Below are positions 22,735-64,000 of a DNA stretch of 64,000 nucleotides, piece by piece. The position numbers were made by a program, and so were the translations under genes. Below the pieces are notes generated by a model. The model was not told the origin of the DNA. It ran no database searches and saw only the letters and a list, made by a program, of their open reading frames with translations. This stretch comes from Spirochaetia bacterium (GTDB lineage: Bacteria > Spirochaetota > Spirochaetia > CADAEX01), in assembly GCA_017446885.1 (NCBI GenBank), contig JAFSOR010000021.1, forward strand, positions 2,550 to 66,549, in the 5' to 3' direction. Every line of letters begins with the position of its first letter. Positions within the stretch are counted from its first letter, which is position 1.

Positions 22735-24606
22735 TTACTGGAGCTCGAACTCCAATGTCATGCCTGGCTCCACGGGAGTACCAGGCTCTGGCGACTGCCT
22801 TACTACCCAGCCCTCGCCTTTTATTACCAGATTGAACCTGTCGTCTTTGAAAAGTGGCAGAAGATGTTTCTTGGAAGCACCGGTAAAGTCAGGAACAACA
22901 TCAATTACAGCAAAATTCTTTTCCTGAGAAGCGTTGATTGTGCCGTCAAATCCAAGCACTGTGTCGCCTGTGCGGGCCATTCCCTTGTACGAGATTATGT
23001 CGTTGGCCAGCTTGCCTACAGCAGGAACTGCTATTCCGGCACCTGTGGTTATGCCGCCTTTCATAGGGTGGAAAGCTACATTGTAGATAATGTACTGCGG
23101 GTCTTCGGTCGGGAAAATTGCAATGCACGAGGCTGTGAACTTATCATCGGAATACTTTTTTATCTCATCATCATAAACCTGGGCTGTACCAGTTTTCATG
23201 GACATGCGTACACCGCCTACATTATGACGCCGCGCAGTACCGCGGTCCACCGAGGCCCGCTCCATCATAAGAAGCATGGAATCGGCAACCTTGGGTGATA
23301 CAACCTCCATTATAGGCTGTCTTTCGTTCTCGAACACCACATGCCCGGTGGCATCCACGACCTTTTTAATCACATGTGGCATAAGCATGGTTCCGTGGTT
23401 GGAAATGACAGTGACTGCCTTCATTATCTGCATGGCATTGACCTGCACCTCCTGCCCCATGGCAATAGTAGGCTTTGAGCGGTCTGACCATCTGGAGGTA
23501 GGCCTTATGCTGCCCTTTTCTTCTGGAAGCTCGACACCGGATGCCTCGCCAAAGCCGAACTGCTTGATCATGAAATAGAACTCCTCGGGTGTTACAGATT
23601 CAGATGCCATGCAAGTGCCGGGGTTGCACGAATACTTGATTATATCGCCGGTATCGATATCGCCATGATGCCCTGTGCATTTTATAGGATTGCCCGAGAT
23701 ATTTGTGTAAAAGCCGTTGCAGAAGAACCTGGATTCCGGGGTAATTCCGTTAGGGATATGCATGAACGAGCTTATGCTGAACACTTTGAATACAGAGCCT
23801 GGCTCGTAGGTGTATATGACCGGCTTGTTCCGTTTTATAGGGTCGTCTGCACTGTACTTTGTATAATTGTTCAGATCAAGCTCGGGCATGGAGACATAGG
23901 CCAGAATCTCGCCGGTCTTAGCATCGGCCACCAGGGTTATGACACCGTCGATAGGCTCATACTGCTCCATTATATCCATAGAGGCCTGCTGGGCAAAGTT
24001 CTGGATATTGACATCAATGGTCAGATACACCTGATTGCCATAGACAACGCCCGAAATAGCTTCCTGGTTCCCCACCGGGAAAAGATACCTGTCCATCTGG
24101 CGCTCTATGCCGTCAAGACCTTTGTTGTCATCGCCTGCAAAGCCTATAAGATGCGATGCCAGCTCCTTCTCGGGATACAGCCGCCCATAGTCGTTATCCA
24201 CACGGATACCCGATATCTCACCGCTTTTAATAAGGTCCTGTATTTTCTCGGCAGCCTCGAAAGATACCTTGCGGGCCAGCTGGATAAGGTCGCCCCCTTT
24301 CCTGTTGAATTTTTCTTTTATCTCTTCCTCGGGAATCTCGAGAATCTCGGAAAGCTTTTTAGCCACATAATCTGGATTTTTCAAAGTAGGCCGCCACCCG
24401 AACACCCTGAAAAGCCGTGTCTGGATTGCCAGCACCACACCATTGCGGTCCAGAATAGGTCCCCGCTCCACCCGATAGTTCTTGGTGGCGGCAGAATCAT
24501 CCCTAGGACTTAATACCATAAGGTAAAAATAGCGGCATATGATACCACACAGGAAAATGACTGCGAATGCGAAGATGACTATGGCTTTCTTTGTTTTTTC
24601 CATCAA
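22735..24606 (-). CDS. Penicillin-binding protein (class B transpeptidase) with C-terminal PASTA domain
   Basis: 623 aa. N-terminal TM, dimerisation domain, transpeptidase motifs (STFK-like, SxN, KTG: ...MKTGTAQV...). C-terminal PASTA-like segment (GEGWVVRQSPEPGTPV). Confidence 0.85.
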   Translation of the reverse strand: MMEKTKKAIVIFAFAVIFLCGIICRYFYLMVLSPRDDSAATKNYRVERGPILDRNGVVLAIQTRLFRVFGWRPTLKNPDYVAKKLSEILEIPEEEIKEKFNRKGGDLIQLARKVSFEAAEKIQDLIKSGEISGIRVDNDYGRLYPEKELASHLIGFAGDDNKGLDGIERQMDRYLFPVGNQEAISGVVYGNQVYLTIDVNIQNFAQQASMDIMEQYEPIDGVITLVADAKTGEILAYVSMPELDLNNYTKYSADDPIKRNKPVIYTYEPGSVFKVFSISSFMHIPNGITPESRFFCNGFYTNISGNPIKCTGHHGDIDTGDIIKYSCNPGTCMASESVTPEEFYFMIKQFGFGEASGVELPEEKGSIRPTSRWSDRSKPTIAMGQEVQVNAMQIMKAVTVISNHGTMLMPHVIKKVVDATGHVVFENERQPIMEVVSPKVADSMLLMMERASVDRGTARRHNVGGVRMSMKTGTAQVYDDEIKKYSDDKFTASCIAIFPTEDPQYIIYNVAFHPMKGGITTGAGIAVPAVGKLANDIISYKGMARTGDTVLGFDGTINASQEKNFAVIDVVPDFTGASKKHLLPLFKDDRFNLVIKGEGWVVRQSPEPGTPVEPGMTLEFELQ

Positions 24607-28584: not shown

Positions 28585-29651
28585 AACGCACCTCGCATTG
28601 TAAAATTCCGGTCGGTAAGGGTAAAAGAATCCTTAAGCCCGGAAGAAATATAAACTTCCTTATCCTTGGTTATGAATACAGCCTCTACTCCGCTTGTCCT
28701 CTCCACCAGTGCCATACCTTTCTCAAGCCCCAGGGCAAAAACTGCGGTGGAAAGGGCATCTCCGACCGCCGATTCCCCGGACAGGATAGATACACCAGCC
28801 AGGCTGTTATCCACAGGATAGCCGGTCCTTACATCAAAAATATGATGATACCGCTTTCCATCCTGTTCAAAAAACCGCTCGTAGATGCCCGATGTAACCA
28901 TAGAGCCATTTTCCATGGTCACCACCCCTATGGCAGAGCCCCGGCCGCCAAAGGGATCCTGAAGCCCTATGCGGAAACTGCTGCCATCGGGTTTTTTACC
29001 AAATGCCAGTATGTTGCCGCCCAGGTCTATTATGCCCCCCTTGGAGTCGCTTGAAATCAGAAAATCGCACACCTGGTCGGCAATATACCCTTTGGCTATG
29101 CCACCCAAGTCCACCGCAAGCTCCTTTTGGGGCAGGAAAGCAGTGCTATTTTCTGCATCCAGCACCAGGGCGCGGTAATCCACCAAGGCCACCGCATGCT
29201 TAAGATGTTCGGCATCGGGCACGGCAGCATGGTCTGTACCTATGCCCCACAGCTCCACAACAGGGTCTATGGTAACATCAAACATCCCTTCTGATAAAAT
29301 ACTAAATTTCTGGGCCATAGTCAAAAGTTCGAAAACAGCTTTGGACACAGCCACAGGAGAAACACCTGCGCTGCGGTTAAGGGCAGAGATTTCGCTTGTG
29401 GGGATATTTTTGCTTATTTTGTTTTCCAGTTCGGAAATAAGGGAAAAAGAGGCCGGCAGCAGAGCCTTTTCTTTGTTATCAAACAGGGATACAGAGCATA
29501 CTGTCCCTAATGCCAGCTCTGTCTGCCGGACAGGTTTGGGTTTTCCGGTGCAGCCGCACACTAGCACAGCTGCAAAAAGTATTAAAACTGCACTTTTAAA
29601 AAACCGTAGTTTAGAACTCATCTCCAGAAATTGTAACCAATGCATTCTCAC
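28581..29651 (-). CDS. apbE: FAD:protein FMN transferase (ApbE family) lipoprotein
   Basis: 356 aa. Signal peptide with lipobox-like VLVCGC. ApbE motifs incl. DLGGIAKGY and conserved C-terminal region. Confidence 0.8.
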   Translation of the reverse strand: MRMHWLQFLEMSSKLRFFKSAVLILFAAVLVCGCTGKPKPVRQTELALGTVCSVSLFDNKEKALLPASFSLISELENKISKNIPTSEISALNRSAGVSPVAVSKAVFELLTMAQKFSILSEGMFDVTIDPVVELWGIGTDHAAVPDAEHLKHAVALVDYRALVLDAENSTAFLPQKELAVDLGGIAKGYIADQVCDFLISSDSKGGIIDLGGNILAFGKKPDGSSFRIGLQDPFGGRGSAIGVVTMENGSMVTSGIYERFFEQDGKRYHHIFDVRTGYPVDNSLAGVSILSGESAVGDALSTAVFALGLEKGMALVERTSGVEAVFITKDKEVYISSGLKDSFTLTDRNFTMRGAF

Positions 29652-54236: not shown

Positions 54237-54656
54237 TCATAAATCGATAATATATTTTTTTATTAGACAATCCGCAAAAACACTTTCATAACTAAAAATA
54301 ATTGCAAGTTCATTATCCTCTTCCCTTAATATTGAAACATATTCATCAAAATCTGTTATTGTTGGCAGAACTTTGAAAAGTTTTTCTGCCATTTCCTTTT
54401 CAAACCCTGCAAAAAAGAATGGAGGTGGATATTTATCAATATTTCCAGCGATTGAGTTTCTAATAGGAATATATATATTGTCCAGTTTTTCAATTTCCTT
54501 TTCAAGTACTGTTCCTTTTAGGCTTTCTTGCAAGCGGCGTCTGGCTTTATTATATTCTGCCCAATTATGGAAAAACTTATATAAATCTGTGCCTTTCCAT
54601 TGCGAATCTACCAGTTTTTTCTTTTCTTCTGTCATTTCTTTACTCCACAATTTCAC
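54237..54656 (-). CDS. Hypothetical protein immediately downstream of the ADPRT domain (candidate cognate immunity/antidote protein)
   Basis: 139 aa, AT-rich. Start overlaps the stop of the gp7-ADPRT gene. No motif recognised. Confidence 0.4.
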   Translation of the reverse strand: MKLWSKEMTEEKKKLVDSQWKGTDLYKFFHNWAEYNKARRRLQESLKGTVLEKEIEKLDNIYIPIRNSIAGNIDKYPPPFFFAGFEKEMAEKLFKVLPTITDFDEYVSILREEDNELAIIFSYESVFADCLIKKYIIDL

Positions 54657-56442
54657 ATTCTAAAATAACCCTTTGCGGCCAAGATGTTACATTTTCAACC
54701 CTTGAATCAAGTATTTTTAATTTTGTATTAAGACCAAAGATTATTTCACTTTCTCTTATGTTTGTCGTTTTATATGCATGAGTTCCTTCGGGAACCCTAA
54801 TATTAAGTTTAACATTGCGATTTGTAAAAACATTTTTTTCCGCGACGCCTGACGTACTCATAAACCCCTTTTCTATGAAGATTCTACCTTTATCTATTTT
54901 ACCTGGCAACTTTGTAAAAGCGTTCTGCCACTTTAATTTATTATCATCTTGCGGCCATTCAACTCCTGCAATATAAGGTAAAGCATCAGCATCTACATTT
55001 CTTGTTACAATTATGTTTTCATTTATATTATTTCTCTTTATGATATTTTGTAAAGTTTCAACAACTTTTTTTTGACTGTCACTCAATTCTTCTTTCATTC
55101 GTAGACATTCATTAATATGCTTTGCATTTGTAGACGCTATATAACCACCCATACCAAATTTTCCATAAACAATTGAATGTTCTTCTTTAGTTATAGGATG
55201 TTTTATTTCTTTAAATTCTTCTTTGGTTAGTGTTTTATATTCAATTTTTGGTTTTTCTGGCTCAATAATCTTTGTTTTCTCAATTATAGAAGTCGCCGAG
55301 GGTTTTGCGGTTGGTGGTTTCAGGAATCTCGGCTGTATATCATTGCCCACATGCTCCCGGGTGCTGTCACGCTCTATGCCTGTCTGTTTGGTGAAATCCC
55401 TTGCCTTTGCCTGCCATTCTCCGATTTTCTGCCTTGCTTTGGTGTTGTCGAGTCCTGCGGCATCCTGTGTAAGTGCAACACGCTTGTAGAGTCTGATATT
55501 CCGCTCTATGCTACGTAATGCCTGCTCGCCCTCATACCGGGTGAAGGTTTTCCCGTTATAGGTGACTTTCTCACTGGCCATCTGGTCAAGCTCTTTCTCT
55601 GTATATTCTTTCTCCATGCCCTCAAAATATGGGTAGAATGAGTGCCGGCAGTTTATGCCGCATATTCCGGTAGGACTTCCAAGTCCGCACACACTGAAAG
55701 GGCGGTAGTTTGGATTCTTCCCACTTCTGGAGAATATCTGTCCCTGCCATTCCTCATGTTCAGGCCTTGCACCCAGATGCGCCGATGTCTCCACAAGGTC
55801 ACATTCTACAGCATCGCAGTTGTTCAGTGTCATCTGTGCGGCTGTCTGGTTTATGCCAGTCAGTATGTTCATTCTTACGGCGGATTCAATACTTCGCCGT
55901 ACAGGCTTTCCGTTCTCGTACTGAACGGTAGTGACTCCGGCATCTGCCAGATCGTCAACGGCGGTCTTGATTGCTGCATCATATGTGAAAGCCCCGCTTC
56001 TGACCTTGGAGACGGCTCTGTTTGCTTCCCGGACAAAAGCCTCCTGACTTGTCGCCGCTGTGGTAAGAGTAAGCCGGGAAAGGTCGCTGTAGCACTTCTG
56101 GACAGTCGCCAGTATCTCCTGTGCGGTAGGTGTGCTTACAGTCCGCCCAAGTGCATCAAGGAATATCTTGTTGTCGTTCTGGGTGTTCTTATCCAGTGCT
56201 TCCTGTACTACTGCCTTGACTGCTGCGGCAACATTCTTGTCATATCTCCGGATTTTCTTCTCAATATCTGCCTTAAGGCTCCCGGATTCCGCCAGTATCT
56301 GCGCCTGCCACCTGTCCATATCAGACGCCTTTCCGAGTCTGGCTATACGTCTTGCCATGTCACGCAGTATGTCGGTCTCGAGCTGTGAGTAAATATCTAC
56401 AAGTTCATCTGACAACCCAGCAAGATAACGGGGTGGAAGCAT
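54640..56442 (-). CDS. Phage minor head protein (SPP1 gp7 / Mu F-like) with C-terminal ADP-ribosyltransferase toxin domain
   Basis: 600 aa. The N-terminal 400 aa resemble gp7-family head morphogenesis proteins. A Pro/Lys-rich linker follows. The C-terminal ~200 aa carry R-S-E class ADPRT motifs: YGKFGMGGYIASTNAKHINECLR, VTRNV (Arg), FMSTSGV (STS), ESEIIF (ExE). Confidence 0.8.
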   Translation of the reverse strand: MLPPRYLAGLSDELVDIYSQLETDILRDMARRIARLGKASDMDRWQAQILAESGSLKADIEKKIRRYDKNVAAAVKAVVQEALDKNTQNDNKIFLDALGRTVSTPTAQEILATVQKCYSDLSRLTLTTAATSQEAFVREANRAVSKVRSGAFTYDAAIKTAVDDLADAGVTTVQYENGKPVRRSIESAVRMNILTGINQTAAQMTLNNCDAVECDLVETSAHLGARPEHEEWQGQIFSRSGKNPNYRPFSVCGLGSPTGICGINCRHSFYPYFEGMEKEYTEKELDQMASEKVTYNGKTFTRYEGEQALRSIERNIRLYKRVALTQDAAGLDNTKARQKIGEWQAKARDFTKQTGIERDSTREHVGNDIQPRFLKPPTAKPSATSIIEKTKIIEPEKPKIEYKTLTKEEFKEIKHPITKEEHSIVYGKFGMGGYIASTNAKHINECLRMKEELSDSQKKVVETLQNIIKRNNINENIIVTRNVDADALPYIAGVEWPQDDNKLKWQNAFTKLPGKIDKGRIFIEKGFMSTSGVAEKNVFTNRNVKLNIRVPEGTHAYKTTNIRESEIIFGLNTKLKILDSRVENVTSWPQRVILECEIVE

Positions 56443-60015: not shown

Positions 60016-61373
60016 CTTCCACCACCCTCCAGAATCTTGCCGAACATAGCCCTTGCAAACCCCGGCGGAACGGCGTTGCCTATCTGCTTTACCACTTCAA
60101 CCTTAGTACCTGTGAACTTGTAATCAGCAGGGAAACCTGTAGCCGCTGCCAGCTCGGACGGCTGGAGCATACGGAAACCGATGTCGAATACACAAGGGAC
60201 GGTCACCCCGAACCTGTCCTTAGTGGTAACTGTAGGCAATGGCTCTTTAACGCTTCTCGCCTTGCCGTTGCCGTAGTATTCGGTTACAAACGGAGTAAGC
60301 GGGCTTACGAGACAATGCTCTTGTTTAGTGCAGATGGTCGAAAGCGGCTCTGTAAGACTTCGGCTTCTGTCTTTCGCCGATGTCTGCCCTATGGCCATAC
60401 AGAACGGAGCAACAAGCCCATAGCGGTTTGATGTGTCCAAGGTCGGCACCGGGTCAGTGACAGGGTGAACACGTCCATCGCCTCCGTTATACCTTGCGAG
60501 GAAAGGAACTATCAAGGAATGATGCGCCCCTGTCGTCGATATGGTGGAGAGAGGTTTGTCTATGCTTGCAACCTTGCTTGTGCCCCGCAGTATAGCTAAG
60601 AAAGGCTCTGCTTGGTTGCCCCAGTACTTCTTTATACCGTATTCGATACGTCGTAATGTCGCAGGTGCCAGCGGTTTTGACCGCTCTGAAATCGGCACGC
60701 AGGGGATAGACCAGTCAATGATCTCGGCGGCCGCCCTCCACTTCGGGAGGTGGAAAACATTGTCCTCCTCCGTGTTGGTGAACTCCGGCCACAGAATCCG
60801 CTTCCTGCCTTTAACCGCTTGGATGAACAGCCGCCTTCTGGTTGTAGCCTCCCCGTAGTCGGCGGCGCAGAGAACCTTCCAGTCCACAGAGTACCCGAGA
60901 CTCCGCAGCCCCTGTATGAACGCACGGAAGGTCTTGCCCTTCTCCCGCTCAATCGGCCTGCCGTACTCGTCCAGGGCTCCCCAGGTGGTGAACTCAGGCA
61001 CGTTCTCGATGATTACCCGCTCCACATAGAGCTCTCCCAGCCATTTCAATATCTCCCATGCGGTCGCACGGCTCTGGTCGCTCCTCGGTCTTCCGCCCCT
61101 TGCGTTGCTGTGGTGGGTGCACTCCGGGGAAGCCCAGAGCAGGTCAAGCTTACCGCCTGGCACCACCTTGGTCGGATCAAGGTGCTCAACACTCTCTTGT
61201 ATATGCTCTGCAGCAGGATAATTAGCAGCATGTGTCTCTATTGCCCTGTCCCAATGGTTTATTGCCAAGAGCTCCACATCATAACCTGCAGTATTGGCAG
61301 CCTGTATCAGCCCGGTGGATTCACCGCCACCGCCGCAGAACATATCAACAATCTGCAATTTCCGGGTTATCAT
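60009..61373 (-). CDS. DNA (cytosine-5)-methyltransferase, orphan (no cognate restriction enzyme nearby)
   Basis: 454 aa. Motif I VDMFCGGGG, motif VI ENVPEF. Motif IV variant WASPECTHHS instead of the canonical PCQ. Confidence 0.8.
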   Translation of the reverse strand: MITRKLQIVDMFCGGGGESTGLIQAANTAGYDVELLAINHWDRAIETHAANYPAAEHIQESVEHLDPTKVVPGGKLDLLWASPECTHHSNARGGRPRSDQSRATAWEILKWLGELYVERVIIENVPEFTTWGALDEYGRPIEREKGKTFRAFIQGLRSLGYSVDWKVLCAADYGEATTRRRLFIQAVKGRKRILWPEFTNTEEDNVFHLPKWRAAAEIIDWSIPCVPISERSKPLAPATLRRIEYGIKKYWGNQAEPFLAILRGTSKVASIDKPLSTISTTGAHHSLIVPFLARYNGGDGRVHPVTDPVPTLDTSNRYGLVAPFCMAIGQTSAKDRSRSLTEPLSTICTKQEHCLVSPLTPFVTEYYGNGKARSVKEPLPTVTTKDRFGVTVPCVFDIGFRMLQPSELAAATGFPADYKFTGTKVEVVKQIGNAVPPGFARAMFGKILEGGGRC

Positions 61374-61948
61374 TTCTTGCCTCCTCTGATCTCTACCCTG
61401 GTCAAAATATCATCTGCAATTCCCGGCAGAAACTCCCGTACAACTGCCGATTTAGCCTGTTCTGTGCTCATTCCATCCACAATGACCCTGTGTCCTTTCT
61501 CCTCAAGATGTTGCTCCTGCATTTGCTTTATAAGCTCATCCGGAACAGGGATTTCCTTCTCCTCTGACAACGGTCTGTGATAAAGTGCATGGACAACCCC
61601 TCCCTTCAGTGCCGAGATGAATGACCTTTTGACATACCAGCCCTTGCGGAAACGCCGCAGAACATAAATAACAGCATCTGATGCCCTGTCCTGCATGGTC
61701 ATGCTGTCCAGATAAAACCGTTTCTTACGCATCTGTGCCTGTATCATCCTCATAGCAACCTCTCCAGAGAGTTGCCATAGAGAACTCCAGGCCTCAGGAT
61801 CCTGCTTCTCCAGCCAGTCCGCCTGATAATTGAGCAGGCGTTCATTGTCATTATGGGGGCAATCATATCTCTTAAGCCGGCGTACAGGTTTTCTCTCGCC
61901 GAAATCAAACTCAAGCTGTCCATCATCGGTATACAATTCTCCCTCCAT
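61370..61948 (-). CDS. Hypothetical phage protein
   Basis: 192 aa. 4-nt overlap with the MTase gene. No confident motif. Confidence 0.4.
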   Translation of the reverse strand: MEGELYTDDGQLEFDFGERKPVRRLKRYDCPHNDNERLLNYQADWLEKQDPEAWSSLWQLSGEVAMRMIQAQMRKKRFYLDSMTMQDRASDAVIYVLRRFRKGWYVKRSFISALKGGVVHALYHRPLSEEKEIPVPDELIKQMQEQHLEEKGHRVIVDGMSTEQAKSAVVREFLPGIADDILTRVEIRGGKK

Positions 61949-62432
61949 GGCCCTCTGTCCTAAGGCCGTTCCTGTGCATAAAATTACTGAGTTGGCTTGG
62001 CCTAAGCCCTAATATTCCCTGCGCTTCCACACGGGTAAGACCTACAAGCCTCTGTGCAAATCCGCTGTCATACCGGTTATGCTTACGATGCTTAGGCAGA
62101 ACTATCCGCCTTTGTGACACCGGACTGCTTTTGCCTGCCCACCGCTGGACAAGAACACTCCTAAGCTCCCCCAGTTTCCTGAAGGCCTCCGCCGCAGACT
62201 TGCTGTCTGTCACCCATGCAATCTCCTCGGTTTTCGCCTTTCTGAATACCTCCTGTACCCATTCTGGAGCTGGAAGATCATACTCATAATCGCCGCGCAG
62301 ATAGTGCAGAGCATCTTCGTTCCTGCTCTTACGGAATCCATACTTAGAAGCTTTGCCTATAAGGTCTGCTAAAGGAGAAAGCACAGTTGCATGGAAAATT
62401 AAATCCATAAGGCCTTCGTTAGAACCGCTCAT
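61923..62432 (-). CDS. Hypothetical phage protein
   Basis: 169 aa, basic. Overlaps neighbours. Confidence 0.4.
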   Translation of the reverse strand: MSGSNEGLMDLIFHATVLSPLADLIGKASKYGFRKSRNEDALHYLRGDYEYDLPAPEWVQEVFRKAKTEEIAWVTDSKSAAEAFRKLGELRSVLVQRWAGKSSPVSQRRIVLPKHRKHNRYDSGFAQRLVGLTRVEAQGILGLRPSQLSNFMHRNGLRTEGHGGRIVYR

Positions 62433-63058
62433 TGGCTGAACCTCTTAATTATTGGTGTTACCGCCGCAGGATCAACTATCTGTTCAGTGACAATCTCGCC
62501 TTGTGGATTCTTTGAGAAGATAAGACCACAGGGGATACAAAGACTGCGGTCATAATGCCTGGTCAAAGGTTTCAGGCACTTAGGACAGACATCCAGGCCC
62601 ACACCGGCTTTTTTCTCTTTGGCTTCAGCTTTCTCTTTTTCTTGTGTTGATCTCGAATAAAACCTTTTAGGGGTTTTATTCGAATCAACATATTCTGATT
62701 CTGTTTCTGTTTTTGTCAAAGATTGAGCATGTTCTGTATCAGATGTTACAAGTTCGTTTTCGGTATTCGTTTTGACTATTCGTTTTTGATATTCGTTTTC
62801 GGTATTCGTTTCATCATTCGTTTTTCTTGCGTTATGGTTCCCGATCTGTCCGCCGCGGTGTCTCCTGGCTCCCAGGGATGTCTTTATCACGTTGAACATA
62901 GAGAGCGCTGCATTGGTCAGTTCCTCCGGCTCTGTCCCGAAGCAGGCGTAATCCAGAAGGGCACATGCAAGCTTCTGCCGCTCCCTCTTGGAGATGGCCT
63001 TCATGTCTGTAACGGCCTGCCATTTATCATAGTATATGGTGGAATACAATGCTGCCAT
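62429..63058 (-). CDS. Putative phage replication initiator / replisome organizer with C-terminal zinc ribbon; contains internal iterons
   Basis: 209 aa. Central low-complexity segment (NTENEYQKRIVKTNTENELV...) encoded by the 13-bp tandem repeats. C-terminal CPKC...CIPCG zinc ribbon. Located next to ssb as in lactococcal-type phage replication modules. Confidence 0.4.
   Translation of the reverse strand: MAALYSTIYYDKWQAVTDMKAISKRERQKLACALLDYACFGTEPEELTNAALSMFNVIKTSLGARRHRGGQIGNHNARKTNDETNTENEYQKRIVKTNTENELVTSDTEHAQSLTKTETESEYVDSNKTPKRFYSRSTQEKEKAEAKEKKAGVGLDVCPKCLKPLTRHYDRSLCIPCGLIFSKNPQGEIVTEQIVDPAAVTPIIKRFSQ
62751..62830. repeat. Six tandem direct repeats with exact 13-bp periodicity (core TTCGTTTT; minus-strand AAAACGAA), candidate origin iterons
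   Basis: Core occurrences at 62753, 62766, 62779, 62792, 62805, 62818. The period is not a multiple of 3, so the repeat is not maintained at the protein level. Confidence 0.65.
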
Positions 63059-63069
63059 CAGTCCCTCCT

Positions 63070-63495
63070 TTAGAACGGAATCCCGTCATCGTCGAACCTG
63101 TCGGGCTCCGGCACATTCACAGGCTTTGCTGTCTTCTGAGACTCAGCGCCGCCTTTCCTCTCTTTCTCTCTCAGGCGCCTCACCTCGTCCAGTATCAGCT
63201 TGAGCGTGCTCCTGGACTTACCTTCCCGGTCTGTCCACCTGTCCTGCCTGAGACTGCCCTGCACGATGACGGCGGTGCCCTTCTGCATCTCCCGGGCCAA
63301 GTCCTCCGCCTGTTTTCCGAAGTATGAGGCATCGAAGTATGAGACCTCCTCCTTCCATTCGCCTGAGGACTTGTCCTTCCAGCTCTTGTTCACAGCAAGA
63401 GAAAACGACACCACCGCTGTGCCCTGCGGCGTATACTTGAGCGCCGCATCCTGTGTGAGCCGGCCTGTGAGCAGAACGTTGTTCATGTCATTCAT
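63070..63495 (-). CDS. ssb: Phage single-stranded DNA-binding protein
   Basis: 141 aa. OB-fold SSB N-terminus (VLLTGRLTQDAALKYTPQGTAVVSFSLAVN...) and canonical acidic tail ending DDDGIPF. Confidence 0.85.
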   Translation of the reverse strand: MNDMNNVLLTGRLTQDAALKYTPQGTAVVSFSLAVNKSWKDKSSGEWKEEVSYFDASYFGKQAEDLAREMQKGTAVIVQGSLRQDRWTDREGKSRSTLKLILDEVRRLREKERKGGAESQKTAKPVNVPEPDRFDDDGIPF

Positions 63496-64000
63496 TTTTC
63501 GTACAACTCCTTTGAGTCATCATCAAATCCCAGCGGCGGCGCAGGCTCTCCCACGGTTGTCCGTCCCTCTTTCTCCAGCTTCTCATACTCTGCACGCTGC
63601 TCAGGTGTCGCCCACTTGAAGCGTCCAGCCTTGTCCAGGGCTTCCTTCTGCTTCTTTGCTGCGACGAGTGCCCAGAACGCCTTGCTGTACCAGTCGTTGG
63701 CCGACTCCTGTCCGTCGACCATCTTGAGTTCCTTCCTTATCTCCTCAAGCTTCTCCTTGTCCATGAAGTCCTTGTACTCCGCAATCTCAGGGAGAATCTT
63801 GTTGATGTTGGCCATAAGGTCAGAAGCCACGCCTGGAATCCTCACCCCTTTGCTCTCCTGTTGCGGTGCAGGTGCCTCATGCTCAGGCTCTCCCTGCGGT
63901 ACCCAGTCTCCCTTTGTCTCCGGCTCTGGAGGTGTCACATCTCGTATGGTGGTCATCTCCTCTGGCAGCTCATCCTGCGTGTATGGCATACCTCCCATAT
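63492..64000 (-). CDS. Partial CDS (C-terminal part; N-terminus beyond window); possibly the C-terminus of an ssDNA-annealing/recombination protein
   Basis: ORF open to the window edge. Acidic/Pro-rich N-portion and K/E-rich helical C-terminus. Position upstream of ssb suggests a Sak/RecT/ERF-type gene, but there is no motif support. Confidence 0.3.
   Translation of the reverse strand, partial: MGGMPYTQDELPEEMTTIRDVTPPEPETKGDWVPQGEPEHEAPAPQQESKGVRIPGVASDLMANINKILPEIAEYKDFMDKEKLEEIRKELKMVDGQESANDWYSKAFWALVAAKKQKEALDKAGRFKWATPEQRAEYEKLEKEGRTTVGEPAPPLGFDDDSKELYEK

Follow-up and report, generated by a model that had tools for sequence, protein, structure and literature searches.

The principle that a replication origin can lie inside the gene of its initiator is well known. 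In bacteriophage lambda, ori-lambda is found inside O and comprises four 18-bp iterons with a 38-bp AT-rich stretch (PMC3349717). Stx phages likewise have an in-gene origin, with six iterons against the four of lambda, and the length of the protein changes accordingly (PMC3349717, PMC7466680). The origin also lies inside the initiator gene in SPP1 (G38P/oriL; PMC6316719) and in TP901-1 (ORF13) and Tuc2009 (Rep2009) (PMC8965321); for ORF20 of 80alpha an in-gene origin was proposed from homology to G38P, but not shown (PMC5499656). Gram-positive phage modules with an initiator but without a loader are on record as well (PMC6316719, PMC8965321, PMC5499656).

Here we describe a segment of a prophage, from a Spirochaetia metagenome-assembled genome, that is probably an iteron-type origin inside its own initiator gene. 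The window (the whole stretch of DNA that was analysed) is 64,000 nucleotides long, and its right end is the prophage. To our knowledge, no replication origin of a spirochaete phage has been described. The clade to which the encoded protein belongs is undescribed and very rare, and occurs in spirochaete prophages; comparison of its members shows a repeat array that is cognate to the protein and selected as DNA, along with neighbouring DNA elements that are conserved too.

A repeat array within a prophage early gene

The gene order of the prophage was read in L001, a longer copy of the same contig: integrase, M78 peptidase/DUF4411, CI-like repressor, small ORFs, RecT, SSB and the gene that hosts the array, followed by unknowns of 169 aa and 188/192 aa, a C5 cytosine methylase, terminase, portal and head genes. 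The preliminary description had placed the host gene next to ssb and a probable annealing-protein gene, and both neighbours were confirmed, the former by its match to PF00436 and the latter because RecT (PF03837) is whole in L001. The complete protein has 333 aa in the identical contigs L001-L003, and the ORF at 63492..63998 of the window is its C-terminal part. The recT-ssb-host gene module was found in every long contig. The features discussed below are as follows.

63492..64000, minus strand: 3' part of recT (single-strand annealing protein), truncated by the window end
63070..63495, minus strand: SSB gene, directly upstream of the host gene and in the same operon (PF00436, E 3.1e-31; phrog_44)
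62429..63058, minus strand: host gene, 209 aa, proposed origin-binding initiator (from the ORF, profile searches and an AlphaFold2 model)
62822..62863, minus strand: codons of the arm motif, RHRGGQIGNHNARK, candidate specificity determinant, lying just 5' of the iterons as the gene is transcribed
62752..62824, minus (coding) strand: iteron array, six copies of RAAACGAAY (from pattern matches, Tandem Repeats Finder and the DNA of relatives)
62738..62751, minus strand: block A, TTGTAACATCTGAT on the coding strand, immediately 3' of the last iteron
62693..62725, minus strand: block B, CAATCTTTGACAAAAACAGAAACAGA, conserved, candidate unwinding region, low in GC and A-rich on the coding strand
62645..62690, no strand assigned: inverted repeat or hairpin, with an interrupted stem of 18-19 bp and a 7-nt loop
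62627..62649, minus strand: block C, CAACACAAGAAAAAGAGAAAGCT, which overlaps the hairpin at its 3' foot
61370..62432, minus strand: two co-transcribed genes (169 aa and 192 aa) with no function assigned and no family match

The six same-strand repeats that had been claimed are present. On the + strand the unit is (A/G)TTCGTTT(T/C), starting at 62752, 62765, 62778, 62791, 62804 and 62816; four copies are exact (ATTCGTTTT at 62765, 62778, 62791 and 62816) and two have one mismatch (GTTCGTTTT at 62752 and ATTCGTTTC at 62804). On the coding (minus) strand of the gene the iteron reads AAAACGAAT, and the conserved unit is the 9-mer RAAACGAAY, an asymmetric core with random flanks rather than a dyad-symmetric unit of 18-19 bp of the lambda O type. 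Some details of the preliminary description need amending. Its "perfectly phased" array with exact 13-bp spacing has intervals of 13, 13, 13, 13 and 12; its last 8-mer starts at 62817, not 62818; and the core that it gave for all six copies occurs in five, the fifth copy being the variant TTCGTTTC. Its argument that a period indivisible by 3 implies maintenance at the DNA level holds up well: the six iterons are spread over all three frames (0, 0, 1, 2, 0, 1), encoding the peptides KTN / ETN / (E)NE / KRI.

Tandem Repeats Finder reports the array with a period of 13, 4.5 copies and a score of 83. Iteron matches with at most one mismatch are about as frequent in the 64-kb window (16 on both strands) as in shuffled sequence (14.4 expected), and six of these 16 fall within 73 bp on a single strand. 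About 0.008 matches are expected per 72 nt, giving a probability of the order of 1e-12 for five more beside a seed; the clustering is far beyond chance. The array has one of the features that define an iteron-type theta origin, namely at least three regularly spaced repeats in the same orientation that are conserved as DNA. A search of 62400-63100 for DnaA boxes at one mismatch or fewer found none, and for this reason we set aside a DnaA-dependent origin.

An AT-rich stretch beside the repeats, suggested earlier as something to look for, is indeed present, and lies inside the gene. GC content is 0.32-0.36 across 62600-62850, against about 0.5-0.6 on both sides; the segment is the GC minimum of the profiled 60-64 kb and shows strong strand asymmetry. 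The accompanying dip in duplex stability is moderate (60-bp minimum of -72.5 kcal/mol, about 1.8 sd from the window mean of -83.0, sd 5.7), being the lowest of the early operon, whereas many intergenic regions of the window are weaker. GC skew does not inflect at the site, a result that carries no information in a prophage. Within the low-GC stretch, block B has short-period ACAGAA repeats (TTCTGT four times on the + strand, 62693-62716), and distant relatives have a different short-period repeat at this position (ACTACAA, 7 nt). Block B also contains a promoter-like TTGACA-16-CAGAAT on the minus strand (62719-62692), which we left out of our model because its -10 element is not kept in the relatives L007 and L008.

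Next to block B is the inverted repeat, with perfect inner arms of 12 nt (62653-62664 and 62672-62683). Folded as single-stranded DNA, it gives -16.4 kcal/mol for the minus strand and -17.0 for the + strand, with z of about -8. The sequence changes in five relatives while complementarity is kept: 94.4% of cells are paired (38-58% in slid controls), 11 of the 18 pairs are compensatory, and one-sided changes number zero among 90 pair cells. An Rfam search of the segment gave no match. Because intermediates of the G-U type are absent and both strands fold equally, a DNA palindrome or cruciform fits these data better than an RNA helix does. The CCCC...GGGG hairpins seen in L009, L010 and L309 were not counted as covariation, since they coincide with the Pro/Gly codons of PPxxPxG. 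The preliminary description had not mentioned the inverted repeat. Taken in order, iterons, low-GC stretch and inverted repeat form an origin-like anatomy.

Selection on the segment as DNA

We read nine relatives as DNA, five from the protein search (36-68% identity) and four from a profile of the N-terminal domain, and the AAAACGAAT core was retained in all of them. The seven intact relatives of the AAAACGAAT type keep it down to 36% protein identity, with four to nine copies. Copy number varies across loci (6, 6, 6, 8, 9, 8, 4 and 3), as does spacing (9-14 nt), and all three frames are used. Core positions 2-7 are nevertheless identical in 55-56 of 56 units (nine loci, whose proteins are 36-100% identical), against near-random flanks and spacers.

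Codon positions give the same picture. Among four close relatives, 72% of third positions are invariant within the array and 76% in the 59 nt that follow it, against 27% in the N-terminal domain and 0% in the zinc ribbon. In the same relatives block A is invariant at every codon position except for one T/A site, and block C is near-invariant at every codon position in these four and in the more distant L313; outside the iterons, the blocks CAATCTTTGACARAAACAGA and CAACACAAGARAAAGAGAAAGCT are kept at all codon positions. The alignments thus show the iterons, the two flanking blocks and the complementarity of the inverted repeat to be conserved as DNA rather than as protein.

In three lineages the gene is interrupted within the linker. 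In two independent assemblies, L306 and L307, both near-identical to L007, three iterons (38 nt) have been lost and the gene is frameshifted; L308 has lost one 7-nt unit of a second repeat, again with a frame shift; and L309 has an in-frame TAG within the linker. Prophage decay or errors of assembly may account for these variants. Since the unit lengths are not multiples of 3, a change in the repeats of this segment disrupts the gene. Related phages that lack the repeats while keeping the protein segment, which had been named in advance as contrary evidence, were encountered at none of 12 distinct loci, and where repeats were lost (L306/L307) the gene is broken.

Scanning viral and genome contigs with protein patterns turned up no relative of the window protein. 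About 300 loci with three copies of AAACGAAT, from viral, genome and metagenome collections, were dropped, since none of them encodes a relative of the protein.

The host protein and the covariation of its arm with the iterons

An AlphaFold2 model from a six-sequence alignment predicts that the 209-aa protein has a three-helix N-terminal domain (aa 1-63, pLDDT about 80), a disordered linker (aa 66-154, pLDDT below 50) and, at the C-terminus, a beta-rich zinc ribbon (aa 156-194) followed by a helix to aa 208. A C-terminal zinc ribbon had been proposed from the sequence, and the CxxC...CxxC pattern, the model and zinc-ribbon profile matches agree on it. The codons of this predicted linker contain the iterons as well as the low-GC DNA and the inverted repeat. 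The linker starts with a Gly-rich basic arm (aa 66-79), of which residues G69, G70, Q71, G73, N74, N76 and A77 are invariant in the six aligned proteins.

Family searches place the N-terminal domain near DUF6291 (PF19808). The three-helix domains of the six first-found members match profile positions ~3-60 of 79 with E of 1e-5 to 3e-2; the window protein scores 25.3 bits and its relatives 14.8-25.5 bits, consistent yet all under the Pfam gathering cut-off of 27.2, and precomputed domain tables grade PF19808 as weak or faint for these proteins. The family adds no functional information, and a search for DUF6291 in the literature library that we used found no mention of it. The window protein also matches phrog_15768 (E 4.7e-07), whose function is not annotated. 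It has no significant similarity to any characterised initiator in Pfam, PHROG, NCBIfam or PDB sequences; the NCBIfam search gave no match at all, the only matches in the PDB-sequence profile search were generic zinc ribbons, tblastn against GenBank phages found nothing, and Foldseek against the PDB was uninformative (best E 0.7).

Longer relatives provide a link to replication. P0006 and the product of L309 match phrog_270 and phrog_9474, annotated "replication initiation protein", with E of 1e-21 to 1e-27, and also phrog_9327 and phrog_1701; annotations include "primosomal protein" and "DnaD-like helicase loader". P0005, P0006 and the L309 product have a middle domain in common with annotated initiators. 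The domains inserted in P0006 and the L309 product are found in phage proteins annotated as initiator, primosomal protein or DnaD, which sometimes adjoin DnaB-like or DnaC-like genes. The window protein lacks this initiator-linked insert. Its assignment as a putative replication initiator is thus supported only indirectly, through the N-terminal domain, arm, iterons, zinc ribbon and genomic position that it has in common with these longer relatives. In Dulem virus 33, a gene with a DUF6291-like N-terminal domain follows ssb, and its linker has a different 10-bp repeat in three copies and a hairpin; the arrangement therefore recurs outside the clade of the window protein.

When 1.84 billion representative proteins were searched exhaustively by HMMER for the N-domain profile, only 13 matched, all of them metagenomic. 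We compared the DNA of three distant members (L313, L314 and L315) with that of the AAAACGAAT loci.

Seven AAAACGAAT loci: arm GGQ[IP]GN; repeat AAAACGAAT; 4-9 copies, spacing 9-14 nt
L313 (protein P0020): arm RGAPVGN; repeat AAAACAAWTC; 7 copies, spacing mostly 11-12 nt
L314 (protein P0015): arm RGAPDGN; repeat AAAACAATTC, of the AAAACAAWTC type; 5 copies, spacing 11-13 nt
L315 (protein P0021): arm GGAPLNN; repeat AACAACY; 8 copies, spacing mostly 10-13 nt

The repeats of the three distant loci sit at the equivalent position of the array, with at most one copy elsewhere in each locus. P0015 is a mosaic: its helical domain is 78% identical to that of P0006, of the AAAACGAAT type, and 36% identical to that of P0020, and it nevertheless has the arm and iterons of the P0020 type. 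Arm and iterons therefore switched together, independently of the helical domain. A single recombination could have moved both, since the arm codons abut the array. The covariation of repeat and protein, set out in the preliminary description as a check in related prophages, is thus borne out: across a small set of 12 distinct loci, with one mosaic protein (P0015), three iteron types pair with three arm motifs, and these comparisons show that the iteron sequence changes together with the Gly-rich arm motif of the encoded protein. The peptide footprints of P0016 (NEYA five times), P0017 and P0018 (NNSE/NNSR), judged from the peptides alone, suggest the same pattern, and they predict AAACGAAT at a 12-nt period and repeats resembling AAAACAATTC.

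The genes downstream vary more. The 169-aa gene overlaps the host gene by 4 nt, and the 169-aa/192-aa pair is kept in five lineages; it is missing downstream in L010 and L308, where unrelated genes follow and the iterons are the same, leaving the host protein as the sole constant partner of the array. Neither protein of the pair has a match in Pfam, PHROG, NCBIfam or PDB sequences. The model of the 169-aa protein is helical with a C-terminal winged-helix-like unit (pLDDT 66) and is not loader-like; Foldseek with this model returned nothing (best E 0.86). Searches of the early region with Pfam, PHROG and NCBIfam identified no helicase, primase, loader or polymerase, and a novel helicase loader may be among the downstream genes.

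A putative origin, its alternatives and the known systems

We consider it likely that the segment 62627-62824, in the part of the host gene that encodes the disordered linker, is a theta-type replication origin of the prophage. Upon induction the early operon (recT, ssb and the host gene) would be expressed, and the host protein would use its three-helix domain and its GGQIGN arm to bind the six iterons that its gene contains. The resulting oligomer, spaced at 12-13 bp, would distort the DNA and open the adjacent low-GC, strand-asymmetric stretch (about 62690-62750), and the 18-bp inverted repeat might extrude, or fold upon strand separation. The zinc ribbon, host factors or both would then recruit the helicase and primase of the host, and a later mode that depends on recombination (sigma) would be supported by RecT and SSB. 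We give a modest chance to a bolder version, in which the protein represents an undescribed class of minimal initiators (three-helix domain, iteron-reading Gly arm, linker and zinc ribbon) that operate without a phage helicase or loader: the strictly Watson-Crick, covarying palindrome would act as an extruded hairpin, and its recognition by the zinc ribbon or a primosome protein of the host would load the host helicase. A unit of 12-13 bp is not a multiple of 3, so that such gain or loss turns the initiator gene off, as seen in L306/L307; if this version is true, the structure of the origin would be coupled to expression of the initiator.

A possible objection is that selection on the DNA and covariation of arm and iterons show a cognate pairing of protein and DNA, and do not by themselves show an origin. 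The repeats might bind the gene's own product for a regulatory purpose (autorepression, a roadblock to transcription of the downstream, late-leading genes or copy control), with the origin elsewhere or replication driven by recombination. The promoter-like TTGACA-16-CAGAAT inside the segment would suit this view, as would RecT and SSB directly upstream and the fact that no helicase or loader is identifiable. However, operators normally lie at promoters and not in the middle of the coding sequence of the regulator, the -10 of the promoter-like site is not kept in L007 and L008, and a low-GC stretch with a conserved palindrome is the usual layout of an origin. Longer relatives moreover contain initiator-type domains, and in an unsystematic look at the early region of L001 we noticed no other repeat-rich candidate origin. 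We therefore give a regulatory role in place of an origin only a small chance. It is more doubtful still that the array is bound by a different protein, be it the 169-aa neighbour, a small terminase at a pac site or a host factor. The 169-aa protein has a predicted winged-helix-like end and is translationally coupled to the host gene, but the same iterons occur in L010 and L308 with unrelated downstream genes, and iteron type follows a motif within the host protein. A headful phage normally has its pac site in or beside terS, and the array lies about 3 kb from that gene; for a host factor, the region 62400-63100 offers no DnaA box at one mismatch or fewer.

The remaining alternatives do without a protein that reads the repeats. 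A strongly covarying helix in a transcribed region could be an mRNA hairpin, or the repeats an RNA-level element, controlling translation, processing or termination in the operon. We hold this to be very improbable: Rfam has no match, none of the 90 pair cells is one-sided, both strands fold equally as DNA, no U-tract follows the stem, and the iterons form no structure. Least probable of all is a tandem repeat arising by neutral slippage, or a low-complexity protein linker, whose DNA has no function. Changes in copy number accompanied by frameshifts do occur in relatives (-38 nt in L306/L307, -7 nt in L308), and the encoded segment is predicted to be disordered. Slippage, however, homogenises a unit in its entirety, and in these arrays it is the cores that are invariant, with spacers that differ inside one array as well as from one array to the next; the peptide is not kept as a repeat, three frames being used; and third positions are 72-76% conserved against 0-27% elsewhere in the gene. 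The conservation of the core, the use of frames, the third codon positions and the conserved blocks together exclude a protein repeat and a neutral slippage repeat, and we regard this explanation as largely refuted.

The reading as an in-gene origin, if correct, gives a concrete and testable pair of origin and initiator for a Spirochaetia prophage and assigns a likely function to an uncharacterised clade related to DUF6291. The advance is incremental, since the principle of the in-gene origin is already known. The three iteron types, three arm motifs and one mosaic protein form a natural specificity series, which could reveal how a very small initiator reads DNA and starts replication without a loader of its own. 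Such an origin could also seed plasmid vectors for Treponema-like bacteria, which are poorly tractable.

Among known systems, iteron plasmids (TrfA of RK2, RepA of pSC101) resemble the window locus in having repeats in the same orientation, an initiator encoded in cis and an AT-rich neighbour. Plasmid iterons are typically 17-22 bp long, repeat at about 22 bp (two helical turns) and lie outside the rep gene, usually with DnaA boxes; the window array, in contrast, is short-spaced, inside the gene and without DnaA boxes at one mismatch or fewer. The replisome organizers of Gram-positive phages (SPP1, TP901-1, Tuc2009 and 80alpha) are similar in that their genes too are grouped with those of SSB and a single-strand annealing protein, but the window protein matches none of the replisome-organizer or DnaD families. 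Organizers of the G38P and Rep2009 kind bind direct repeats within their own gene; in the host gene of the window, direct repeats are present and covary with the protein, whose binding to them is putative.

Lambda O with ori-lambda offers a further parallel, as there too repeats and an AT-rich stretch lie mid-gene, in a segment between domains; for the window this likeness is seen in the sequence. The proteins differ, since no Pfam, NCBIfam or PDB-sequence match connects the window protein with O-type proteins (Phage_rep_O), and the C-terminal zinc ribbon is a feature of the window protein. The lambda iterons are imperfect palindromes of 18-19 bp, whereas the window has an asymmetric 9-mer at 12-13 bp, a period at which, unlike in lambda, a change of one unit breaks the frame. 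Lambda encodes its loader P directly downstream, and the window locus has no recognisable P-like loader. The arrangement thus appears to work like the published in-gene origins, yet its protein is not a member of their families; the locus is set apart from them by the absence of an adjacent loader, by its zinc ribbon, by its 9-bp core repeated at 12-13 bp and by its covarying palindrome.

Elements beside the iteron array

Two sequence elements accompany the six iterons that lie in the codons for the predicted disordered linker of the initiator-like gene:
62645-62690, inverted repeat of 18-19 bp, downstream of the iterons
62692-62719, minus strand, promoter-like site TTGACA-16-CAGAAT (10/12 match)

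The arms of the inverted repeat covary among relatives, with 11 of 18 pairs showing compensatory change and no one-sided changes at all; we treat the repeat as a component of the proposed origin. The promoter-like site sits between the iteron array and the inverted repeat. Its TTGACA is kept in close relatives while its −10 element is not. The site may have a part in activating the origin through transcription, or it may have arisen by chance.

The final unit of every AAAACGAAT array is the variant AAAACGAAC (62752-62760 in the window), which in these arrays is then followed by T(T)GTA(A/C). The same element, AAAACGAAC-TGTACA, also closes the array of a different type, AAAACAATTC, in the compared contig L314 (L314:5300-5330), and so may mark the array boundary as an element in its own right.

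Interrupted copies and neighbouring genes

As assembled, the initiator-like gene is broken within its repeat-bearing linker in three related lineages, the first represented by two independent assemblies:
L306:1655-2290 and L307:1161-1800, three iterons gone through a 38-nt loss
L308:408-1160, one 7-nt ACTACAA unit missing
L309:941-1740, TAG in frame within the linker

These interruptions may be genuine variants, signs of decay or artefacts of assembly.

Two further prophage loci are of note:
61370-62432, minus strand, genes for two conserved proteins of 169 aa and 192 aa, directly after the initiator-like gene
54640-56442, minus strand, head protein of 600 aa

The 169-aa/192-aa gene pair lies downstream of the initiator-like gene in five lineages, and the 169-aa gene overlaps the latter by 4 nt. 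Neither protein found a match in any library searched; the 169-aa protein is modelled as helical, with a C-terminus predicted to resemble a winged helix. The head protein is, judging by its domain matches, of MuF type with a toxin-like C-terminus: residues 2-351 match Phage_min_cap2 (SPP1 gp7/MuF-like; E 4e-90), and residues 408-594 match the ADP-ribosyltransferase exoenzyme domain (PF03496; E 1e-17).

Comparison with repeats and genes elsewhere

Arrays of AAACGAAT (at least 3 units at 10-14 nt spacing) were found in about 300 unrelated contigs (L011-L305) spanning many phyla as well as giant-virus bins, several of them with two or three arrays side by side; none of these contigs has a relative of the window protein at its arrays. 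DnaA-box-like 9-mers (TTATCCACA, up to 2 mismatches) are commoner across the whole window than in shuffled sequence (269 vs 193 ± 16); an exact match occurs twice, at 24194 and at 28807, both times in its non-prophage part.

The Dulem virus 33 genome (PP511792.1) offers a comparison at one locus:
L311:2217-2899, annotated CDS pair of 31 aa and 196 aa

From its sequence this pair appears to be a single gene with a GTG start near 2220. The merged gene lies directly 3' of ssb, and its product would have an N-domain like DUF6291 (an uncharacterised Pfam family), a GAKGGRPPKN arm, a linker and a C-domain of the type found in P0005, a longer relative of the window protein; the linker DNA carries three copies of AAATCAAAAC and a CTCCCC...GGGGAG hairpin.
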